IMG/VR virus record: IMGVR_UViG_3300023118_000002
Span: 1-60,247 of that record
Origin: a virus
Lineage: Duplodnaviria > Caudoviricetes
DNA length: 60,247 bases
Reading direction: 5' to 3' (one strand)
Shown here: positions 3,875-44,220 of the stretch, piece by piece
How positions within the stretch are numbered: the first letter of the stretch is position 1
Layout: each line of letters opens with the position of its first letter
Notes under the pieces: generated by a model
Database searches by the model: none
Told to the model about the DNA's origin: nothing
Seen by the model: the letters and a program-made list of their open reading frames with translations, nothing else
Position numbers and translations under genes: made by a program

Positions 3875-3886
3875 CTCCTTTCAAGA
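3875..3886 (-). promoter_or_regulatory. extended RBS TCTTGAAAGGA(G); representative of ~12 copies
   Basis: Other copies at ~4134, 4930, 5667, 5992 (variant), 6343, 6780, 42404, 44025, 46376, 57932, 58544, each just upstream of a start codon. Confidence 0.85.
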
Positions 3887-10693: not shown

Positions 10694-13600
10694 CGCCTAG
10701 TTCTCCCTTCAAGGTAGACAGCTGGTTCTGTGTTTGACGATAGACTTCCGACGTAGACAGAGCCTTCGGAGAGTTGTTGTTCTGGATGAATGTAACGGAC
10801 TTCGAATCGGGCGATGGGTTGTTTGCTTCCAACGTGAGTACTGCGTTCCTAGCCTGTTCCTGCAGCGACACAGAGGTCGCAACGTCGTTAGACGTATCAA
10901 GAGACAGGCTTGGCGTAGGCAGCATTCCAGGAATGTTCTTAGCTCCAGCCTGAATAGCCGACAGATCAAGGACCGGTCGAATAGTAGGTGTAGAGTCCAT
11001 GGAATCACTCAGAATATCCCCAGCACCAGCAAGAGAGTTCTTAAGTCCTGCAATTGCAGAATCACCAATACCACCTGCGGCAGCTTCTACCCGGTCGTAC
11101 TTGTTTTCGATACCAAGAGCAGCACCTTCACCAGTCCACTCACCAAGTCCAGTTGTAACCTTTGATGGAGAGTTGATACCTAGAACCTTCTTGATAGCAG
11201 CAGGGATAGCATTAGCAATGCGCTTAGCTGCGTTAACAACTGTGTTGATACCATTGACTAGTCCAGTAGACATACCACCCGTGATAGCATCAGCCAGGTT
11301 TAGACCGGCGGCAACCATCTTGGAGCGGTTATCACGTATACCGTTAGCAAGACCATTCACGAATGAAATGATCAGGTTGATACCAGCATTAATAATATCG
11401 CCAAGTTTGCTAGATACACCATTAATGAAGTTTACAATAATGTTAATACCCTGCTTAGCAATTTCACCGATGTTGCTGGCAATACCCTTCAGAATGCCGG
11501 AAATGATCTGCAGACCAGCCGTAACAAGCGCAGGAAGCAAGATCACCAAGGCATTCACCAACGATATGATGATAGTTGTTGCTACTTCGACAATCTTTGG
11601 TACAACCTGTTGAACTGCATCAAGCATTGCCAGAAGCAAAGCCACAAATGCATTAACCAAGTCAGGTGCTTTTTGACCAATGACTACTACCATAGACACA
11701 ATAGCTTCACCAATGGCAGCACCCAATGCGGGAAGCTGCTGCATGAAAGCTGTAAGCATCTGAGTAAATAGCAAGATCCCAGCGCCACCAATACCGACAA
11801 GCAAGCCGATACCAACTGCTAGTAGCCCAACACCTTCAGCTGCCAGGAATACACCCGTTCCGATCAGGAGGATTGCTGCTCCAAGGAGCAAGAAACCGAC
11901 CGAAGCCGGAATCAGCAATATACCCATAACCGCAAGAATGCCAAGTCCAGCAGACAGCACGGTCATGACCTTTCCGATGCCTTCCCAAGGGATAGCAGCG
12001 AGAATAGCCAAAGCCGGAGCCAGGATTGCAATAGCCAAGGCTACAGCCACGATAGCAGCAGCACCAAGCAAAGCAACAGGACCTGTGAATCCAAGTAGCA
12101 GAATGATTCCCGTAAGCACCACAAGTACCGCAGTTAGAGCCACGATACCGGAGATGATGTTTGGGATGGGTAGTGCACCAAGCAACGCCACAGCACCAAT
12201 GAGCGGTACCAGAGACAGAGCAATAGCACTAATAGCAACGGCTCCAAGCAAAGCCTGTGGTCCTGCGAAGCCAAGAAGCAGAACTGCTCCCGTGATTGCA
12301 GCAAGCATTACAACGAGCCCAGCCATACCAGCGATCAGGTTTACCAAAGGCAAAGCACCAAGCGCGGCTACAGCACCCGTGAGGATAGCTAAAGCCGGAG
12401 CAATGATAGCAATAGCCCCAGCACCAAATAGCACCTTTGGTCCCATATCACCCAGTAGCTGCAAAGTACCGACAAGAGCGGCCAATACAATGACCAAAGC
12501 AAGCATACCTTGAATAAGGTTGTTTACCGGAAGGGCACCGAGAATAGCAATTACTCCTGCAAGTAGAGCCAAAGCCGGCGCCATAATAGCGATAGCTCCA
12601 GCCGCAGCAAGGATGTTTGGTCCTATCTTAGCCATCAAGTTCAAAGCACCAACCAAAGCACCAAGAACCACGACCAAGGCAAGAACACCTTGAATAAGGT
12701 TAGGTAGAGGGATAGCACCAAGAATAGCAATAGCTATAGCCAACACGAGAATTGCGCCTGCGATAACCTGCATAGCAGAAGCAATAGCAAGAGCCGTAAA
12801 GACACCCTTTTGGCCGCCGAGCTTACTGAAAGCCTCGAACATCAGAAGAAGTTCCTTCATCAGACCACCAATAGCCGCCAATGCCAGACCCAGCTTAGCC
12901 GGATCGACAAGACTAAGCGCGACAGCCGAAGCTGCGAGCAACGCTACAGCAATAGCAATCTGAGTAAGAGTCTTTGCGTTGGTGTTCATCTCAAGCGCCT
13001 TGAGATTTGTTCTCAGAGATCCAAATATGAGGTTGAACTTAGTAACAAAGGACAGCTTGTTACCCTGCAGGATACCACCCAGGTTTCCAAAGAAACCGTT
13101 TAGAGCTGCAAGGAAACCTGCAAACAGACCGGTGTTGATGGCTTTGATAGCGTCATCAAACTTAAGACCGCTTAGAGCAGCCTTAACCTTAGTAACCGCA
13201 GTAGAAATACCCTCGCCAATACCTTCAAATATAGGCTGGAGGAAGCCCCATACGGCCTTGGCGACCGTAACAACACCATTCCAGAAACCCTGGAAGAACG
13301 CTGCCAACTCGAAGAGACCCTGGAAACGATCTTTTACCTTATCAACAAAGTTTCCTACATTGTCGCCACCCTCTTTAAGATGGGTAAGCGTCTCAATACC
13401 GTCTCCGATAATACCGAAGAAAGTCTTAAGAATTCCAATAGGAACAGCGATGATAGCTGCAAGCCCCTTGAAGAAAGTCTGGAAGACAGTACCCTTACGG
13501 ATTGCGTCATCCAACTTTACAAGGAAATCTCCAACTCGAGCTGCGATCTCAAGGAAAGCATCTGAGCCTTCAGCGGTATATCCGAACAGCTGAGCAAAAG

Positions 13601-34030: not shown

Positions 34031-36766
34031 CTACTTGTCAAGTGCTGAGTACAGTGTACTGGTAGAGATACCTAGTCTAGATGCAATCTCCGCAACTGTA
34101 TAGTTGCCTGATGCTAACATGGACTGGGCTAATGCAAGGCTAGCATTGTTAACCTTGGGCCTATCTCTTGGTGTGGCGAGGGATCTAAGATCTTCAACAT
34201 CTGTATTGTCAATGATCTGCTTAAGCTTACTGGCGGTAATGGCACCGGATTGAATGGCGTTCCATTCTTCATCAGTAATCTTAATCTTAATCTTACCAGC
34301 ACCAACCCTAGTACGTGCCTCAGTAAGGGCCATACCATTGACCTTCTTGAGGTCTGCCTTATCAATACCGGGGTTCGCTTCAACCTTAGCCCTTACAATA
34401 GACTGGGCCAACAACTGGGCTTGTCTTTCGAGGGGGGCATTCTTTAGAGCAATGTTTAGCTTAGCATTTAGAGACTTAACCTCATTACTGTAAACACTCT
34501 TAGCAGACTGGCTGTATGGAATGTTCTTAATAGTGAGGGACTCTTTTCTAGCTTCATTAGCAAGAGCCTTTAGACTATTAGCATGATCAGCATAGATGCG
34601 TTCAATTAGGGTACCACCATTACCAGACACAAGGGTATGTGCGTCATTGGTATAGGCGCCTTTCTTAACCTTCTCACGAGAGATGGTAACTTCACCCTTT
34701 TTGTTTGTATAGGTTTCATCAGCAATTACATAATGCTTGTTACCCTTAGCATCAGTCTCCCAATGAGAACCCTTTGGTACGTACATCTTCTCACCAGTAG
34801 CTGCATCAATAGGACCACCAAGGTGCACAGGCCGAGGCTTGCGAGCATCAATGTTTTTATCAGATGTAGTTCTAGAGATCAGTGTAGAGGCACCTTTTTT
34901 AGCACCATTCTGATACTTGCGCTTTAGCTCGTTAATGTTGTTGTCAAGAGCAGAAGCCTTGTAATCTAAGTTGTGTTTCTCAGCATCGATAACAACCATC
35001 GAATGACGAACAGCTCGAGCAATCTCACTTTCATGAGCACCCTTAATAGTCATGTCCGTAATTAGATTAGAAACATCACCCATAAGCTGTTGCTTAAGAC
35101 CGCCTGGATTCTTAGCTCCAGCAAGACCCTTAGTAGAATCTTTCGGAAGCTTGTACAACTCTTTAGGATCAAAGTTCTTAAGTCCACTAAGAGCGGCGGA
35201 AGTCTTAACTTTTCCGTCGTTATTAGGAATTACAAGAACTGTATCACCATCAAAGTCTGCACCTGACAGACGTTCTGCTACCTTGGCATTGATTCCAACT
35301 GCGTCCCTAGCATTCAAAGTAATTGAACGGCGAGCTTCCTTATTACTGTTGTTTACAGTAAGTTGTGGAATCTCAAAGATGCCACCATGAGGGTGACGAA
35401 CTAGAGTGACCACATCTCCATCGTGATACTTAGGAGCAAAGATTTCCGTTTCACTAAGACTGTTAATTGGAAGGATTACATGGTTTGCAGTTCTCGGAAG
35501 ACCAGTTGCTTGAAGTTTCACAGCTGAAGAATCAGCCTCGTCTGCATAAGTCTCGAGCAGCTTGCGCTTAACTCCAGGGTTTGTCAGAGCAAGGATGTCT
35601 TCTAGATCCGCACGCTTTGAGTTCTGCGTAAGATCCAACTGAGCTTTAGCAAGGGCCGGCGTCTGCTTCGAAAGGAACTGTGACGAGAAGTTATTAGACC
35701 AGGTGTACCAATCACCTTCCTCATTCACAATGTTCAGAGGCGAACGCTCAACCTTACCTGTCTTAGGATCTGTGTAACCCTTAGGCCGAGTAATAGAACC
35801 AAACGGATTCGATTCGTCTCCAGTCTGAGGCTTCAAAGCGTCTAGCTTGTTACCGGTATCTTTTTTGTTGGTATTGAACAGAATGTCAACGCCCTTAGGC
35901 AGATCATCCTTGTACATTGCCATACCCTTGATGTAGTGCGTACCATCAACAGGGACACGAACCTGAGCATAGTTTGCATTGCCCAAAGAAATGTCAGCGA
36001 CACCCGGACGAAGGTACATCACACCATCAGAAGCAGCACCACCGTCAGGACCATACTTAACCTCAACACGCTTCGAACTGATGTTAACAAGAGGGCCCAA
36101 ATCGGCGGCTTTCTTATTAGTATCAGGATCGATGTATTCAGCGATGCTATGGATTTTATCCTTGTTGTGATAAACCTCTTTAGCAGTTGTAGATTCGTGT
36201 ACTAAGACCTTCAAAGAAGTCTTCTTACCGGTACCTACCTGAGTTACGTCGGTGTAACGAATAACGTAACCCTGGTCCTTAAGCATAGCAATGCCCGTCT
36301 TAAGAGTCGTGTCACTGATTCCCATGTGGTTCTCAGTACCCTTACCGACATCGACATACTTGTACTTGTCAACGTTGTCTTTAAGGATGTTAGCAACAAC
36401 CTGGTTACGATTAGCACGCTCCTGAACAATGGGGTCCATAAGAGCCCGAACAGAAGATTCGTTCATACCCAACTGCTTACCGATTGCGCTGTTGCTCATA
36501 CCCTTATCTTTAAGAGCCATGATACGACGAGTTTTCTCGGCACGAACATCGTTAGAAGAGATAGAGCGGCGAGCACGGAGATCAGCTGTAGAACTAAAAC
36601 CCAGTCCCTCAGCAATCTTAACCTCACTCAAACCCTTCTTCTTAAGATCTTCATAGGCTGCTAGAAAGCTGACGCCACTTTGGTAAGGGTCTTCACCTGA
36701 ACCCCAAGGATAGCGTCCTGAGTGATGCGGAGTACCATAGTGAGCGAGCGTTGATTCGTCATTCAC
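34031..36766 (-). CDS. single-subunit two-barrel RNA polymerase (YonO/cellular RdRP-like) with HTH domains
   Basis: SGADFDGD at 35243-35266 preceded by LVRHP; upstream SDG and AQVR..YIKGM; three HTH-like segments; AAGGAG before GTG 36766. Confidence 0.8.
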   Translation of the reverse strand: MNDESTLAHYGTPHHSGRYPWGSGEDPYQSGVSFLAAYEDLKKKGLSEVKIAEGLGFSSTADLRARRSISSNDVRAEKTRRIMALKDKGMSNSAIGKQLGMNESSVRALMDPIVQERANRNQVVANILKDNVDKYKYVDVGKGTENHMGISDTTLKTGIAMLKDQGYVIRYTDVTQVGTGKKTSLKVLVHESTTAKEVYHNKDKIHSIAEYIDPDTNKKAADLGPLVNISSKRVEVKYGPDGGAASDGVMYLRPGVADISLGNANYAQVRVPVDGTHYIKGMAMYKDDLPKGVDILFNTNKKDTGNKLDALKPQTGDESNPFGSITRPKGYTDPKTGKVERSPLNIVNEEGDWYTWSNNFSSQFLSKQTPALAKAQLDLTQNSKRADLEDILALTNPGVKRKLLETYADEADSSAVKLQATGLPRTANHVILPINSLSETEIFAPKYHDGDVVTLVRHPHGGIFEIPQLTVNNSNKEARRSITLNARDAVGINAKVAERLSGADFDGDTVLVIPNNDGKVKTSAALSGLKNFDPKELYKLPKDSTKGLAGAKNPGGLKQQLMGDVSNLITDMTIKGAHESEIARAVRHSMVVIDAEKHNLDYKASALDNNINELKRKYQNGAKKGASTLISRTTSDKNIDARKPRPVHLGGPIDAATGEKMYVPKGSHWETDAKGNKHYVIADETYTNKKGEVTISREKVKKGAYTNDAHTLVSGNGGTLIERIYADHANSLKALANEARKESLTIKNIPYSQSAKSVYSNEVKSLNAKLNIALKNAPLERQAQLLAQSIVRAKVEANPGIDKADLKKVNGMALTEARTRVGAGKIKIKITDEEWNAIQSGAITASKLKQIIDNTDVEDLRSLATPRDRPKVNNASLALAQSMLASGNYTVAEIASRLGISTSTLYSALDK

Positions 36767-37346
36767 CGAAGGTCTCCTTATCGATCTCAGTAATGCGGCG
36801 GTCAAAGGTTTTGATTGAATCGATGATGTGCATCAAGTCATCCAGATCCGGAACATAGATCTCAACTGCATCGCCCTTGTAGATACGAAGTTCGATGTCG
36901 ATGTCGGCCGGGTTGTGACCATACTCGAGACAAAAGATGCAGGCATAGATTTCAAGCTGGCGCATGTAAGTACGAGTAGTACCAGTCTTGAGATCATGAA
37001 TGCGAAGCATCCAACGTTCAGTCTTGGGATCGTAACGGAATGAAATGGTGTCAGCTGTACCGAAACAATTTGGAGAGTAGTACAAAGGCTGCTCTGGCTG
37101 CATTTTGAAACCGATACCGTCATTGACGTAAAGGTTCATAGTCTTACGAACGTCAGGCATTTTAACCCGAAGCGCGATCAGTTCTGCAGCGAGAGCGTGC
37201 TTACGATCTCCGAGCCTAGCTGCCTGAGCAGTGTAGACTCTTTTGTCCATAGCTTCTTCATCATAGTTAGTCCAGCTCGGGTTGCTGGGTGCCATGAGGT
37301 TAGCGTGCTTACCTGCCAACTCGTAGTGCGGATTGAAGCGCATCAA
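36759..37346 (-). CDS. PD-(D/E)XK Cas4/RecB-like exonuclease
   Basis: GDRKH, PEQ, FGTAD, IHDLKTG, QLEIYA motifs. Confidence 0.8.
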   Translation of the reverse strand: MMRFNPHYELAGKHANLMAPSNPSWTNYDEEAMDKRVYTAQAARLGDRKHALAAELIALRVKMPDVRKTMNLYVNDGIGFKMQPEQPLYYSPNCFGTADTISFRYDPKTERWMLRIHDLKTGTTRTYMRQLEIYACIFCLEYGHNPADIDIELRIYKGDAVEIYVPDLDDLMHIIDSIKTFDRRITEIDKETFGE

Positions 37347-38008: not shown

Positions 38009-38572
38009 CTACGCATCGAGATAACGAAATGTAAACCCGTGATGGGTCCTAGAGCGTCCGTCACCCCTCAAACAGATGTAAATAGCATTCGCATCACCTG
38101 AAATAGCCTGTGCACATGCTCTCACCGAGTCATAGATTTCTCCTGTTTCTATGATCTGAACTCTGCGAGCCATCCGTCTAAGGCGCTTCCAGTCCCCTGT
38201 GTCTTCCCTTCTGAATATGACTGGGGTACCGTCTGATAGATTCCATCTGAGGTTAAACACGTTTAAGTTACGCGGATCACCATCGACAAAGTCTGGACTC
38301 AACAGAGTAAAGTCAACCGCATTGTAGAAGGCTACAAGCATCAATCTCCAGACAGGTCCATGAAAAGCCCAGTCGTAATACTCAAATGCAACCCAAACAT
38401 CGTGTGTCTTTCGGTCTATGGCCGTCTTTACGTAGTCCTGAGTATCGCTATTAAACACTCTTCCATATGAGCTCACACTCATGTTAGGGAAATGCCTAAT
38501 AGGTCTCCAAATCTCAGGTTCTTGATACATCCAATCACTCCCCATTGAAATACAGAATCCTAACTTGTCCAA
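38009..38572 (-). CDS. NUMOD4 / degenerate HNH / NUMOD1 protein
   Basis: EIWRPI..F...VSSYGRVFN; DGDPRNLNVFNLRW; IIETGEIYDSVRACA. Confidence 0.7.
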   Translation of the reverse strand: MDKLGFCISMGSDWMYQEPEIWRPIRHFPNMSVSSYGRVFNSDTQDYVKTAIDRKTHDVWVAFEYYDWAFHGPVWRLMLVAFYNAVDFTLLSPDFVDGDPRNLNVFNLRWNLSDGTPVIFRREDTGDWKRLRRMARRVQIIETGEIYDSVRACAQAISGDANAIYICLRGDGRSRTHHGFTFRYLDA

Positions 38573-40498: not shown

Positions 40499-40679
40499 CA
40501 AGTTTCCTGTAACCGAGTGCCATATGTAGCTGCTTAGGCGCATCGGGCTCAACCAACTGCATAGTGTCCGCTACAGCCTGAGCTACACTATCCGAGAAAG
40601 TTTTCTTCGTGAGCTTCTTAGGGATCTTAACTATTATCTGGCCGTGGCCTTCTATGTTAATTTTAATTTTAGCCATCAC
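40491..40679 (-). CDS. hypothetical protein
   Basis: 62 aa ORF filling the gap. Confidence 0.55.
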   Translation of the reverse strand: MMAKIKINIEGHGQIIVKIPKKLTKKTFSDSVAQAVADTMQLVEPDAPKQLHMALGYRKLDA

Positions 40680-40971
40680 GCTCCACTAGATGCAAGTTAG
40701 TAACACAGTTGTCTGAATAATCCCCCGAGATATGCCGCACATCCACTTCCTCGCCGTAGTTTACAAAGAATGCTTGAGCTACAAGACGATGCACAAAGAA
40801 GTTTTTAGCAACACCATTACGTGAGAGTTTTACAATGAGCTTACCCACGTTTTTTGAGTGCACCCACGGCTTTAGATCTCGGTTATGCTTAGCGTTTACC
40901 ACCGTGCCATAATTGCTAACCGCGTAGTTGGGATATCCCTCAATCTCGACAAAGACTTCTTCTACCTGCAT
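40669..40971 (-). CDS. NUMOD4-HNH homing-endonuclease-like protein
   Basis: IEGYPNYAVSNYG; VHRLVAQAF; VRH..GD..DN...NL. Confidence 0.8.
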   Translation of the reverse strand: MQVEEVFVEIEGYPNYAVSNYGTVVNAKHNRDLKPWVHSKNVGKLIVKLSRNGVAKNFFVHRLVAQAFFVNYGEEVDVRHISGDYSDNCVTNLHLVERDG

Positions 40972-41441: not shown

Positions 41442-41583
41442 GCACCTCCTTTACGTGATCCTCGACATCGGTCAAAGCAATGGGCTTAGCACAAGACCCA
41501 CACATGTAATAGCTTTTTCTCCACGGGTTACCATCAGGCGCCGGCAACTTCAGCAGCGTTACGATCTTCATCAATTTCTCCAA
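41362..41583 (-). CDS. small C2H2-type zinc-finger protein
   Basis: CGSC...HVKEVH. Confidence 0.55.
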   Translation of the reverse strand: MEKLMKIVTLLKLPAPDGNPWRKSYYMCGSCAKPIALTDVEDHVKEVHGADGANLVEVATQAVEENIKKDTEK

Positions 41584-41776
41584 ATAACTGTTTAACTAAT
41601 CTGTAAGGACTTCGGTTTGAATGCTTATCCTTATTAGCAAGGCTTACGGCCCAACTTTTGCCAGCCCAATAAGGCTCTAAGATGGCTTTGCGTCTTAGAT
41701 TCATAACACGGCCATCTTCGCACACCCAATAATTAGGAAACCCGGGAACCTGCTTCCATCTAAGCTTCCAAATCAC
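41534..41776 (-). CDS. NUMOD4-like protein
   Basis: WKQVPGFPNYWVCEDGRVMN. Confidence 0.65.
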   Translation of the reverse strand: MIWKLRWKQVPGFPNYWVCEDGRVMNLRRKAILEPYWAGKSWAVSLANKDKHSNRSPYRLVKQLFGEIDEDRNAAEVAGA

Positions 41777-41957: not shown

Positions 41958-42148
41958 CAGACAAGCTTATCTACTGCACGCTTGATAGCTTTTACAAGCT
42001 CCTTAGTTTCGAAGTTGACAACCCCTTCAGTATCATCAACGTTCTGTCGTGATTCGATCGGGAGCTCAAATGTAGTGAGCTTGTTTTCGACGTATGACCC
42101 CTCGAGCCGAATTAGTAGCTCTACATGGATTATTTCTTTGTCAGCCAT
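41957..42148 (-). CDS. hypothetical protein
   Basis: 63 aa, GGAGG RBS, coupled stop/start. Confidence 0.6.
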   Translation of the reverse strand: MADKEIIHVELLIRLEGSYVENKLTTFELPIESRQNVDDTEGVVNFETKELVKAIKRAVDKLV

Positions 42149-42396
42149 TACTTAGCCTCCACAAGCGTGTACATTTGAATATTGTTCAGGTCTGTTAGAA
42201 TGTCAAACAGTTCAAAATCTATAGACTTCATTCCCGGGTCTTGCAATATTGTATGGCCTGGAATTAACACCGGATCATTTGCACGCCATGTAAATACGGT
42301 AGTTAACACTCGGGGAAATTCGAAGGTGGTCTTGGTATTGTCATCTTCAATTATTATGGTGACTTTTTTTGCACGCACTAAATTTATGTCGTTCAC
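42148..42396 (-). CDS. hypothetical protein
   Basis: Extended RBS before GTG. Confidence 0.65.
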   Translation of the reverse strand: MNDINLVRAKKVTIIIEDDNTKTTFEFPRVLTTVFTWRANDPVLIPGHTILQDPGMKSIDFELFDILTDLNNIQMYTLVEAK

Positions 42397-42596
42397 AACT
42401 ATTCTCCTTTCAAGAAAATATAGGTTGGTGGAAGGGCGGTTAGAAGAGTGTAAGACCTCAACTAACCGCCCCCTGACCCATTAATACCCGGGGAAGCAAC
42501 TCCCAGACATTTGGCGGTCACATAGCCCTTTATGGACACTGTAAATATGGCAGGGGCTTTCTACCTGGACGACTTCTCCAGTGCATACCTTTTACT

Positions 42597-42716
42597 TGTC
42601 ATGGTGGGCACGATGTAGTTGCTAGCTACGCTGTTGTTTGAGATATGCGCCGGATTCGGTGCGCCATCCCCACCCGCTCTGAGCTTAAGACACTATTTAA
42701 AGACGCTCAGACGTCT
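42597..42716 (-). ncRNA. pistol self-cleaving ribozyme
   Basis: P1 AGACG/CGUCU with loop UCUGAG pairing to CUCAGA; UUAAAUAG; P2 UGUC/GACA; UUAAG; GCG; P3 GGUGGG/CCCACC; scissile A-U at 42602/42601. Confidence 0.9.
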
Positions 42717-43062
42717 ACTGGTTCATTGTGATTGCGATTTCAGAAAGCTGCATATACTCCTGAGCCAAGACTTCCTTTGACAAGACTCGAACTCTAACAA
42801 ACGTCCCGTCCCGATCAGGCAAGACCACAACAATCTGCCCAGGTTTGAGCCACACAATACCAAAAGGACTTTTACTTCGCCACCAGAGAACTGCACCATC
42901 GGTCTTTTCATAGTCAAGATCACTGGTTCGAAACGCCGGAATCCCACCGAGGGAAAGCCAATTTTGAATATCACCAACATTTTCTTCGGTGCATTCAACC
43001 GCAAACTCAGCTTCAGTGATAGGAATAACTCTTTCAACCTTAAGCATCGGGCGCCTTCCCAT
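42715..43062 (-). CDS. hypothetical protein, possibly related to 46448..46741
   Basis: EAV...EN...I..W and KPGQIVV pattern. Confidence 0.6.
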   Translation of the reverse strand: MGRRPMLKVERVIPITEAEFAVECTEENVGDIQNWLSLGGIPAFRTSDLDYEKTDGAVLWWRSKSPFGIVWLKPGQIVVVLPDRDGTFVRVRVLSKEVLAQEYMQLSEIAITMNQ

Positions 43063-44018: not shown

Positions 44019-44220
44019 GTTGTTCTCCTTTCAAGAGAAATATATCTTTTATAGCTTCGTTAGTCCGCTCAAGTCTTTCAACTTCTTGGGTAATGACTAC
44101 TGTTCCGTTTTCTAATCCCTCAAGCAATCGCTTAGCCGTTGGATCGGTATCTTGAGTCTGGATTGCCCGGTCTACAAGCGCTTGGGGGACATATGAAACA
44201 AAGGGCTCGCTTCTATCCAT
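43996..44220 (-). CDS. hypothetical protein
   Basis: 74 aa ORF coupled to upstream stop. Confidence 0.5.
   Translation of the reverse strand: MDRSEPFVSYVPQALVDRAIQTQDTDPTAKRLLEGLENGTVVITQEVERLERTNEAIKDIFLLKGEQHGKGNSV

Follow-up and report, generated by a model that had tools for sequence, protein, structure and literature searches.

The minus strand of an actinophage-like genome carries, directly behind a run of four small genes, a self-cleaving RNA of the pistol class that very probably cuts the bond between A42602 and U42601. The ribozyme spans 120 nt (42716-42597) of IMGVR_UViG_3300023118_000002, a 60247-bp virus record that is complete and bounded by direct terminal repeats, which we analyzed over its whole length and refer to as the window. 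Taken as a whole, our best explanation, which the sequence evidence leaves at about even chances, is that the four small genes would form an early or middle operon with the pistol in its non-coding tail, and that this pistol is functional, processes the operon 3' end, and frees an RNA of ~170 nt.

All elements of a pistol are present on the minus strand and in order. P1 is a 5-bp helix (AGACG/CGUCU, 42716-42712 with 42705-42701; hairpin 42701..42716), and its 6-nt loop UCUGAG (42711-42706) is the 5' strand of the pseudoknot, forming six of six Watson-Crick pairs with CUCAGA at 42683-42678. Behind P1, the A-rich linker UUAAAUAG (42700-42693) leads into P2, a helix of four Watson-Crick pairs (UGUC/GACA, 42692-42689 with 42600-42597), and then into the core UUAAG (42688-42684), in which A42685 and G42684 are A32 and G33 in env25 numbering. 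The second core segment, GCG (42677-42675), provides G42677-C42676-G42675 as the equivalents of G40-C41-G42. It is followed by a P3 domain of 72 nt, with a 6-bp base stem (GGUGGG/CCCACC, 42674-42669 with 42608-42603) that encloses 60 nt, and by the 2-nt junction that contains the predicted scissile dinucleotide A42602/U42601, as placed from P3 and P2. The conserved pistol nucleotides (AAA in the linker, purine-32, G33, G40, C41, and G42) are all found at 42700-42675, with env25 residue numbering and core roles as described in PMC6154101 and PMC7027511. RNAfold of the ribozyme region forms both the P3 base stem and the pseudoknot pairing. The initial annotation had read these elements in the same order and with intact pairing, and every one of them is located here; it had also reported an enclosed P3 insertion, which is present, although at 60 nt rather than the ~55 nt it gave.

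The claim that the ribozyme starts at a stop codon holds as well. The upstream ORF P0001 (115 aa, 42715..43062, minus strand) is the last of the four small ORFs, and its TAG stop (42717-42715) overlaps ribozyme bases 1-2. The first 24 nt of the ribozyme contain UGA, UAA, and UAG, one in each of the three frames. Pistol cores share this property generally: the linker supplies UAA and UAG, and the frequent loop sequence UCUGAG includes UGA. Because the core has stops in all three frames, an upstream frame ends at or just inside any pistol, and proximity to a stop codon is therefore partly forced.

A search of the whole window, on both strands, with the Rfam Pistol model (RF02679), i.e. the check proposed by the initial annotation, returns a score of 38.4 bits (E = 0.0017), where the gathering score is 34.5. 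The margin above the cut-off is 3.9 bits, and no other Rfam family exceeds its cut-off in the window; when the threshold is relaxed to E = 10 for 42350-42800, the pistol is joined by chance-level matches only, with no ligand-like family. The Rfam alignment is wrong in the 3' half, where P3 is shrunk to 4 nt and GAUG is taken as the 3' strand of P2, and it gives no support for that half of the ribozyme. Since this alignment leaves no P3 helix, we prefer the 3' half as drawn by the initial annotation. In a test of that arrangement, we asked for GCG to be followed immediately by a P3 with 6 or more pairs, then by exactly 2 nt, and then by a P2 partner with 4/4 Watson-Crick pairs, all inside 300 nt; when the downstream 300 nt were shuffled with dinucleotides preserved, 56 of 20000 shuffles contained it. 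The same arrangement is seen again in related phages. The exact 25-nt core pattern has no match in the viral contigs. Membership in the pistol class, as first proposed, is borne out by an Rfam score above the cut-off, by the full set of core residues, and by pairing that is confirmed both here and in relatives. More generally, the Rfam model mis-aligns pistols with a long P3; it scores them close to the cut-off and puts their cut in the wrong place.

Comparison with other viral pistols is based on a degenerate core pattern that recovers 97 stretches in viral contigs. This pattern leaves three pseudoknot positions free, and every one of the 82 unique cores is complementary at them, with 21 different combinations in use. 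Because the free positions pair in every core, we consider the comparison set to consist of real pistols. An automatic parse of 109 unique viral cores, later-added loci included, placed P3, junction, and P2 in 99. Among these, 62 have a P3 of <50 nt, with the junction being GU in 54, GA in 4, AU in 2, and others in 2, and 37 have a P3 of at least 50 nt, with GU in 17, AU in 8, and others in 12; by eye, one AU (L055) and the majority of the "others" are parsing errors, and L101 is a further AU. Long P3 domains and an A at -1 are thus common in viral pistols, and they tend to co-occur.

The two features that had been flagged as unusual are accordingly not so. An A/U cut is found in 10 of the 99 parsed viral pistols (by the automatic parse), and the large P3 insertion has counterparts in the 37 of 99 just mentioned. 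The window ribozyme has A-U rather than G-U at the scissile bond, and G-U is not a strict criterion for pistols: Harris et al. (2015, PMC4604425) describe GU at the cut as "modestly conserved", with an identity that "varies somewhat", and the length of the junction as strictly conserved. Similarly, the P3 loop is labeled as variable in a figure legend of PMC7027511. A limited literature search found no description of extended-P3 pistols.

The A at -1 may still have a cost. The pre-catalytic crystal structure described in PMC7027511 has a contact between G53 N2 and G42 O6, which an A at this position would lose, so that by analogy the ribozyme may cleave at a lower rate. Could it have stopped cleaving altogether, i.e. 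be an inactive remnant or a purely structural RNA? We consider this very unlikely. The A in place of the usual G, the modest Rfam score, and the absence of the pistol from most relatives would all suit a relic, but its catalytic residues and helices are all intact, with P2, the P3 base, and the pseudoknot perfectly Watson-Crick, and the AU junction recurs in about 10 independent intact pistols. Decay, moreover, would not keep a 3' half that lies 72 nt away.

The P3 domain is predicted to fold into the base stem and two inner hairpins, a (42664-42647) and b (42629-42615), with a single-stranded CUCAAAC (42642-42636) between them, all on the minus strand. Several relatives share the P3 base and the layout, i.e. 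stem, hairpin a, single-stranded YUYAAAY, and hairpin b, and the base stem covaries among relatives. The YUYAAAY motif is present in 8 of 25 long P3 inserts (the window and 7 others), with 1.8 expected and 0 of 2000 shuffles reproducing the result. In L097 and L235, the P3 base is near-identical to that of the window and the junction is AU too; an AU junction is also found in the related-phage pistols L086, L070, L049, and L084. P3 lengths range from 58 to 218 nt in the extended-P3 relatives, and the inserts of the wider family, from 37 to about 220 nt, are highly diverse. Pairing of a "UUAAA" strand in P3 with the core UUAAG was considered, and it fails for the window when inspected by eye.

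Other loci have P3 inserts of another kind. For example, L015, L016, L023, L058, L067, and L088 carry inserts of ~100-190 nt with the common blocks UUAGGGCGCUAAG ... CUUACUGUCUG ... GUCAGGCCGCCCUA, which, judged by sequence, make up a second homologous P3 domain distinct from that of the window. The motif UCUUAC occurs in these second-type inserts and also in the terminal hairpin loop of the window. The L026 insert has the look of a T-arm, and ARAGORN calls no tRNA in it.

An extension of this size, together with a stop codon in P1, raises the question of whether cleavage is conditional. Specifically, the 60-nt P3 extension, with its three-way junction and YUYAAAY, and/or a terminating ribosome could modulate folding, so that cleavage would answer a factor or the translation of P0001. 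Such control would be in line with an extension that is a conserved domain and not random filler, and with the overlap of the stop and P1, as a terminating ribosome would be expected to cover both P1 and the pseudoknot loop. It is nonetheless unlikely, given that no ligand-like Rfam family is found (E up to 10, 42350-42800), that the P3 inserts of the wider family differ so much from one another, and that bimolecular pistols are reported to work without a P3 loop (Harris et al. 2015, PMC4604425).

The window is a siphovirus-like genome related to actinobacteriophages, and its minus strand carries nearly all genes. PHROG matches identify a siphovirus-like structural module (tape measure, large terminase, portal, and head protease) and a replication module with a 1278-aa DNA polymerase/primase, SSAP, thymidylate synthase, helicase, and exonuclease. 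The replication module also includes three HNH-like ORFs downstream of the pistol (41534-41776, 40669-40971, and 38009-38572) and a 924-aa protein (34031-36805, minus strand) with a full-length match to phrog_4291, a family labeled "RNA-dependent RNA polymerase". In a dsDNA phage, we presume that this protein may be a YonO-like single-subunit RNA polymerase. Because the helicase is 59-65% identical to helicases of Curtobacterium, Arthrobacter, and Microbacterium phages, the host is probably an actinobacterium.

The ORFs on either side of the pistol are less informative. P0001 matches no PHROG family and has no relatives in the viral contigs or in 82 related loci, and P0002 (ORF 42148..42396) has no homologues among the same 82. 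The gap between these two ORFs is 318 nt, of which the ribozyme takes up the first 120 nt, and it contains no minus-strand ORF >25 aa. Megablast of 3 kb around the ribozyme finds no match among isolate phages.

Relatives of the window phage, as identified by tblastn of the window ORFs, account for ~30 of the pistol-bearing loci, and in these the pistol is located between SSAP and helicase. They share the DNA polymerase, SSAP, helicase, exonuclease, and 924-aa polymerase, as well as the long-P3 pistol layout, and the closest of them, L041 and L235, have helicases with ~70-74% amino-acid identity to that of the window. A helicase profile matches at least 551 contigs, 549 of which are confirmed relatives. 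When 82 loci are picked by helicase alone and searched with an nhmmer core profile, 3 have clear pistols (L235, L238, and L239) and one has a weak variant (L267); L240, a marginal nhmmer match (E = 0.23) with no Rfam match, is left out of the count. Rfam searches of 11 of these 82 loci find pistols in 3 of the 11, in agreement with nhmmer. The pistol is therefore sporadic in this phage family and dispensable.

As another alternative, the pistol might travel with a mobile cassette, e.g. one with free-standing HNH endonuclease genes, and serve this cassette rather than the phage. HNH-like ORFs do lie downstream in the window, as do gp90 and gp91 in phage Count (see below), P0001 and P0002 are without homologues in the 82 relatives, and the 11 of 82 helicase-selected relatives with HNH homologues include 3 of 3 clear pistol loci against 8 of 79 others. 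These numbers are small, however, and they are confounded by relatedness, as the HNH-bearing loci are the closest relatives. In addition, the distance and order of pistol and HNH genes vary, and in L239 the pistol comes after the helicase. As such, we regard a mobile cassette as quite improbable.

One pistol of this type is present in an isolate. Microbacterium phage Count (L317) has a 45.9-bit pistol that abuts the gp87 stop codon; its P3 combines a 14-bp base with a long insert, its junction is GU, and the HNH genes gp90 and gp91 and the helicase are found downstream. The annotated ORF 88 of this phage (record 58311-58448) has its start inside the P3 insert and extends past the cut into non-coding sequence, and it probably does not represent a real gene.

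Several other variations are found among the pistol loci. L012, L046, and L079 have two or three same-strand pistols 500-700 nt apart, and the window has one. A weak P2 of 2-3 pairs is seen in 14 loci (L011, L016, L022, L026, L034, L049, L051, L062, L067, L070, L088, L101, L239, and L317), and these loci, a separate subgroup of the phage family, have, directly 3' of P2, a covarying 5-bp hairpin (with stems CUGUG..CACAG, CGGAG..CUCCG, and CGGUG..CACCG) and a purine-rich loop, e.g. GAAGGAUAA. This hairpin may stack on P2. Among 35 loci run through ARAGORN, a tRNA neighbors the pistol in L040, where it lies 220 nt past the cut, and in L023, where it lies just upstream; linkage to tRNAs is not general, and the window has no tRNA. 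In L094, the helicase homologue (10712-11956) has 2 in-frame stops over the tblastn match, and the gene may be interrupted or broken.

The RNA behind the cut also has conserved structure. The 205-nt stretch that begins at U42601 and leads up to the next start codon has a folding z-score of -2.79, with 1 of 200 shuffles folding equally well, and aligns in blocks with L041, L235, L238, and L094; blastn of this region against isolate phages gives no match. About 11 nt past the cut lies a motif that we call S1 (42589-42549, minus strand), which is built from a GGUA/UGCC helix, a bulged U, a GC/GC helix, a variable 5-bp hairpin, an A-rich strand, and an invariant CCC bulge. In an alignment of 8 S1 instances from 7 contigs, 98.9% of cells are paired and 8 of 11 pairs have changed on both sides, figures that are favored by a structure drawn from the same 8 sequences and that come from one clade. 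None of 500 shuffles matches this covariation, and slid controls are 25-37% paired. RNAalifold, applied to the whole post-cut region of 4 sequences, recovers only the outer helix of S1, which it finds independently.

S1 and the pistol go together in the sequences we searched. A covariance model of the motif (R1) run over 184 sources (~1.9 Mb) finds only the 8 instances, at 48-61 bits, in 7 contigs (the window, L041, L094, L097, L040, L235, and L238). In every one of these contigs, the first copy is located 11-39 nt after the pistol cut, and L094 has a second copy at 98 nt. The R1 search finds S1 in 0 of 78 relatives that have no pistol. It is also absent, by R1, from phage Count, which does have a pistol, and most pistols in the sample are without it. 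A stricter S1 pattern finds only L094 among the viral contigs. The same pattern has 9 matches in prokaryote genomes that we take as chance, with R1 scores of 13-26 bits vs the 48-61 bits of real instances. Three other ideas were set aside: S1 is a single copy in the window and thus not a repeated promoter; pairing of the CCC bulge with downstream GGG blocks shows no clean compensation by eye; and a gapped pattern, ATGCAC..AAAGCCCCTG, has >120 chance matches and none that is real. On this basis, S1 appears to be a previously undescribed motif that is tied to pistols in the searched set.

Further downstream, a conserved block, GGCUAUGUGAC (42517..42527, minus strand), is common to L041 and L267, and a 12-bp GC-rich hairpin with a UCUUAC loop and a UUCCACC tail is found at 42473-42432 on the minus strand. 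The stems of this hairpin differ among the window, L041, and L238 with pairing kept, and the loop and tail are conserved. It is a probable 3' boundary or terminator of the unit. In the window, the tail is UUCCACCAACC, with no U run as in an intrinsic terminator, and a terminator scan made no call; the relative L235 has a U-rich tail at the corresponding hairpin. Terminators of actinobacteria often lack U runs. A different hairpin motif, GUCCUGGGUA-UGACAUUAAAC-UGCCCA, recurs in L099, L040, L239 (twice), and L267, where it precedes a TATAAT box by a short distance in the stretch that separates the pistol from the gene that follows; no copy is seen in the gap of the window.

Is this downstream RNA a product in its own right? 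An active ribozyme could also act on the message only, by giving the four-gene mRNA a structured 3' end with a cyclic phosphate or by uncoupling it from what follows, and the downstream piece would then be a by-product or terminator region. This is possible, and we find it doubtful. Pistols are generally located at the end of an ORF (62 of 104 pistol loci have an open frame of 60 codons or more whose stop falls between -10 and +15 nt of P1), but this position is partly forced by the stops in the core. A review (PMC6765202) relays the suggestion that bacterial ribozymes process polycistronic RNAs into parts with different stabilities, and an effect on the message would account for phage Count and for the majority of sampled pistols, which do without S1. 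By contrast, the strict coupling of S1 to pistols, its covariation, and the conserved blocks found past the cut in this clade speak for selection on the downstream RNA itself.

We thus return to a released RNA as our preferred reading. On the sequence evidence, the chance that the role of the ribozyme is to release or define this downstream non-coding RNA is slightly short of even. A more specific version, which we put forward tentatively and at slightly lower confidence, is that the pistol would be the front of a composite module in one actinophage-like clade, giving an sRNA of ~170 nt a precise 5'-OH end; the parts of this putative module would be the extended-P3 pistol, S1 at 11-39 nt past the cut, the further conserved blocks, and the hairpin with the UCUUAC loop.

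The sequences ahead of the next gene bear on which RNA receives the new 5' end. P0002 has a GTG start at 42396 on the minus strand, preceded on that strand by the leader UCUUGAAAGGAGAA (42415-42402) and a -10-like TATATT (42422-42417). This leader occurs 12 times in the window, with 0.5 expected, and 11 of these copies are on the minus strand before genes (5' ends at 3886, 4940, 5678, 6354, 6791, 10714, 42415, 44036, 46386, 57943, and 58555). By eye, a TATAAT-like box lies 5-12 nt upstream of the leader in about 7 of the 11, and relatives have the same leader, with TATAAT boxes at the corresponding place. A promoter scan did not list the -10 box at 42422-42417. The CUCUU of the leader can pair with AGGAG, and the Shine-Dalgarno sequence may be held in a mini-hairpin. 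The leader and the TATAAT-like box are probably a promoter/leader signature of early units of the phage, and we infer that P0002 begins a new transcription unit, with the hairpin at 42473-42432 closing the previous one, which would start at the leader at 44036. The initial annotation had the ribozyme cutting the polycistronic transcript and defining the 5' end of the RNA downstream, which remains plausible; because P0002 appears to be served by a separate -10-like box and leader, the end set by the cut is likelier to be that of a ~170-nt non-coding RNA than that of a downstream mRNA.

The sequence of events would be as follows. P1 would fold during transcription, and pairing of its loop with CUCAGA would create the pseudoknot. 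The 72-nt P3 domain would fold into its base stem and two inner hairpins, and P2 would close after GACA emerges. G42677, the equivalent of G40, would activate the 2'-OH of A42602, and a hydrated Mg2+ held at G42684, the equivalent of G33, would aid the leaving group, in keeping with descriptions of G40 as the general base in pistols and of the hydrated Mg2+ at G33 as the acid (PMC6154101, PMC7027511). The chain would break between A42602 and U42601, with a cyclic phosphate on the A and a 5'-OH on the U; according to Harris et al. (2015, PMC4604425), pistol cleavage leaves a 2',3'-cyclic phosphate on one product and a 5'-OH on the other. The operon mRNA would retain the compact ribozyme as its 3' end, with the 2',3'-cyclic phosphate, and a structured RNA of ~170 nt, from U42601 to the hairpin at 42473-42432 and with S1 inside, would be freed with a 5'-OH. 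The next gene would be read from its own promoter and leader.

Compared with the pistols of RF02679 (e.g. env25, Lysinibacillus sphaericus, and Alistipes putredinis), the window ribozyme has the same P1, 6-bp pseudoknot, A-rich linker, P2, purine-G core, GCG, P3, and 2-nt junction, lies near phage genes, and scores above the Rfam cut-off. It differs in the A before the scissile bond, in a branched P3 of 72 nt where those have a short hairpin, and in the S1 motif behind it; the phage is also actinophage-like, whereas the pistol papers put the emphasis on Firmicutes. The extended-P3 pistols of uncultured relatives and of phage Count are more similar, with the SSAP-helicase position, a long P3, and a GGUGGG-like P3 base in common, but insert sequences vary widely among them, and S1 is found in one subclade and a CUGUG...CACAG-type hairpin in another. 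As in the bacterial twister and hammerhead cases in 3' UTRs or polycistronic RNAs covered in PMC6765202, a self-cleaving RNA follows a coding region and a split of the transcript is proposed, whereas the present case belongs to another class and has a conserved structured RNA immediately past the cut. Theta (minimal HDV-like) ribozymes by phage tRNAs (PMC10879173) are likewise small phage ribozymes proposed to mature a neighboring non-coding RNA; by contrast, the window ribozyme has another fold and cuts on the other side, and tRNAs are not generally adjacent to these pistols.

The window ribozyme is a sound pistol call, and the features first flagged in it are within the natural variation of the class. 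What it adds is context, i.e. a syntenic subgroup of extended-P3 pistols in actinophage-like viruses and a covarying motif that is found only behind the cut. According to a 2019 review (PMC6765202), most genomically encoded ribozymes are functional orphans. The chemistry of pistols is well understood and their biological role is not, and the window and its relatives give a defined setting for this role, with phage Count as a cultivable relative that has an extended-P3 pistol. If the composite-module reading is true, S1 would be a new RNA family, the ~170-nt RNA would be one released by a ribozyme from a 3' UTR, and this release would be the first concrete biological job for a pistol ribozyme.
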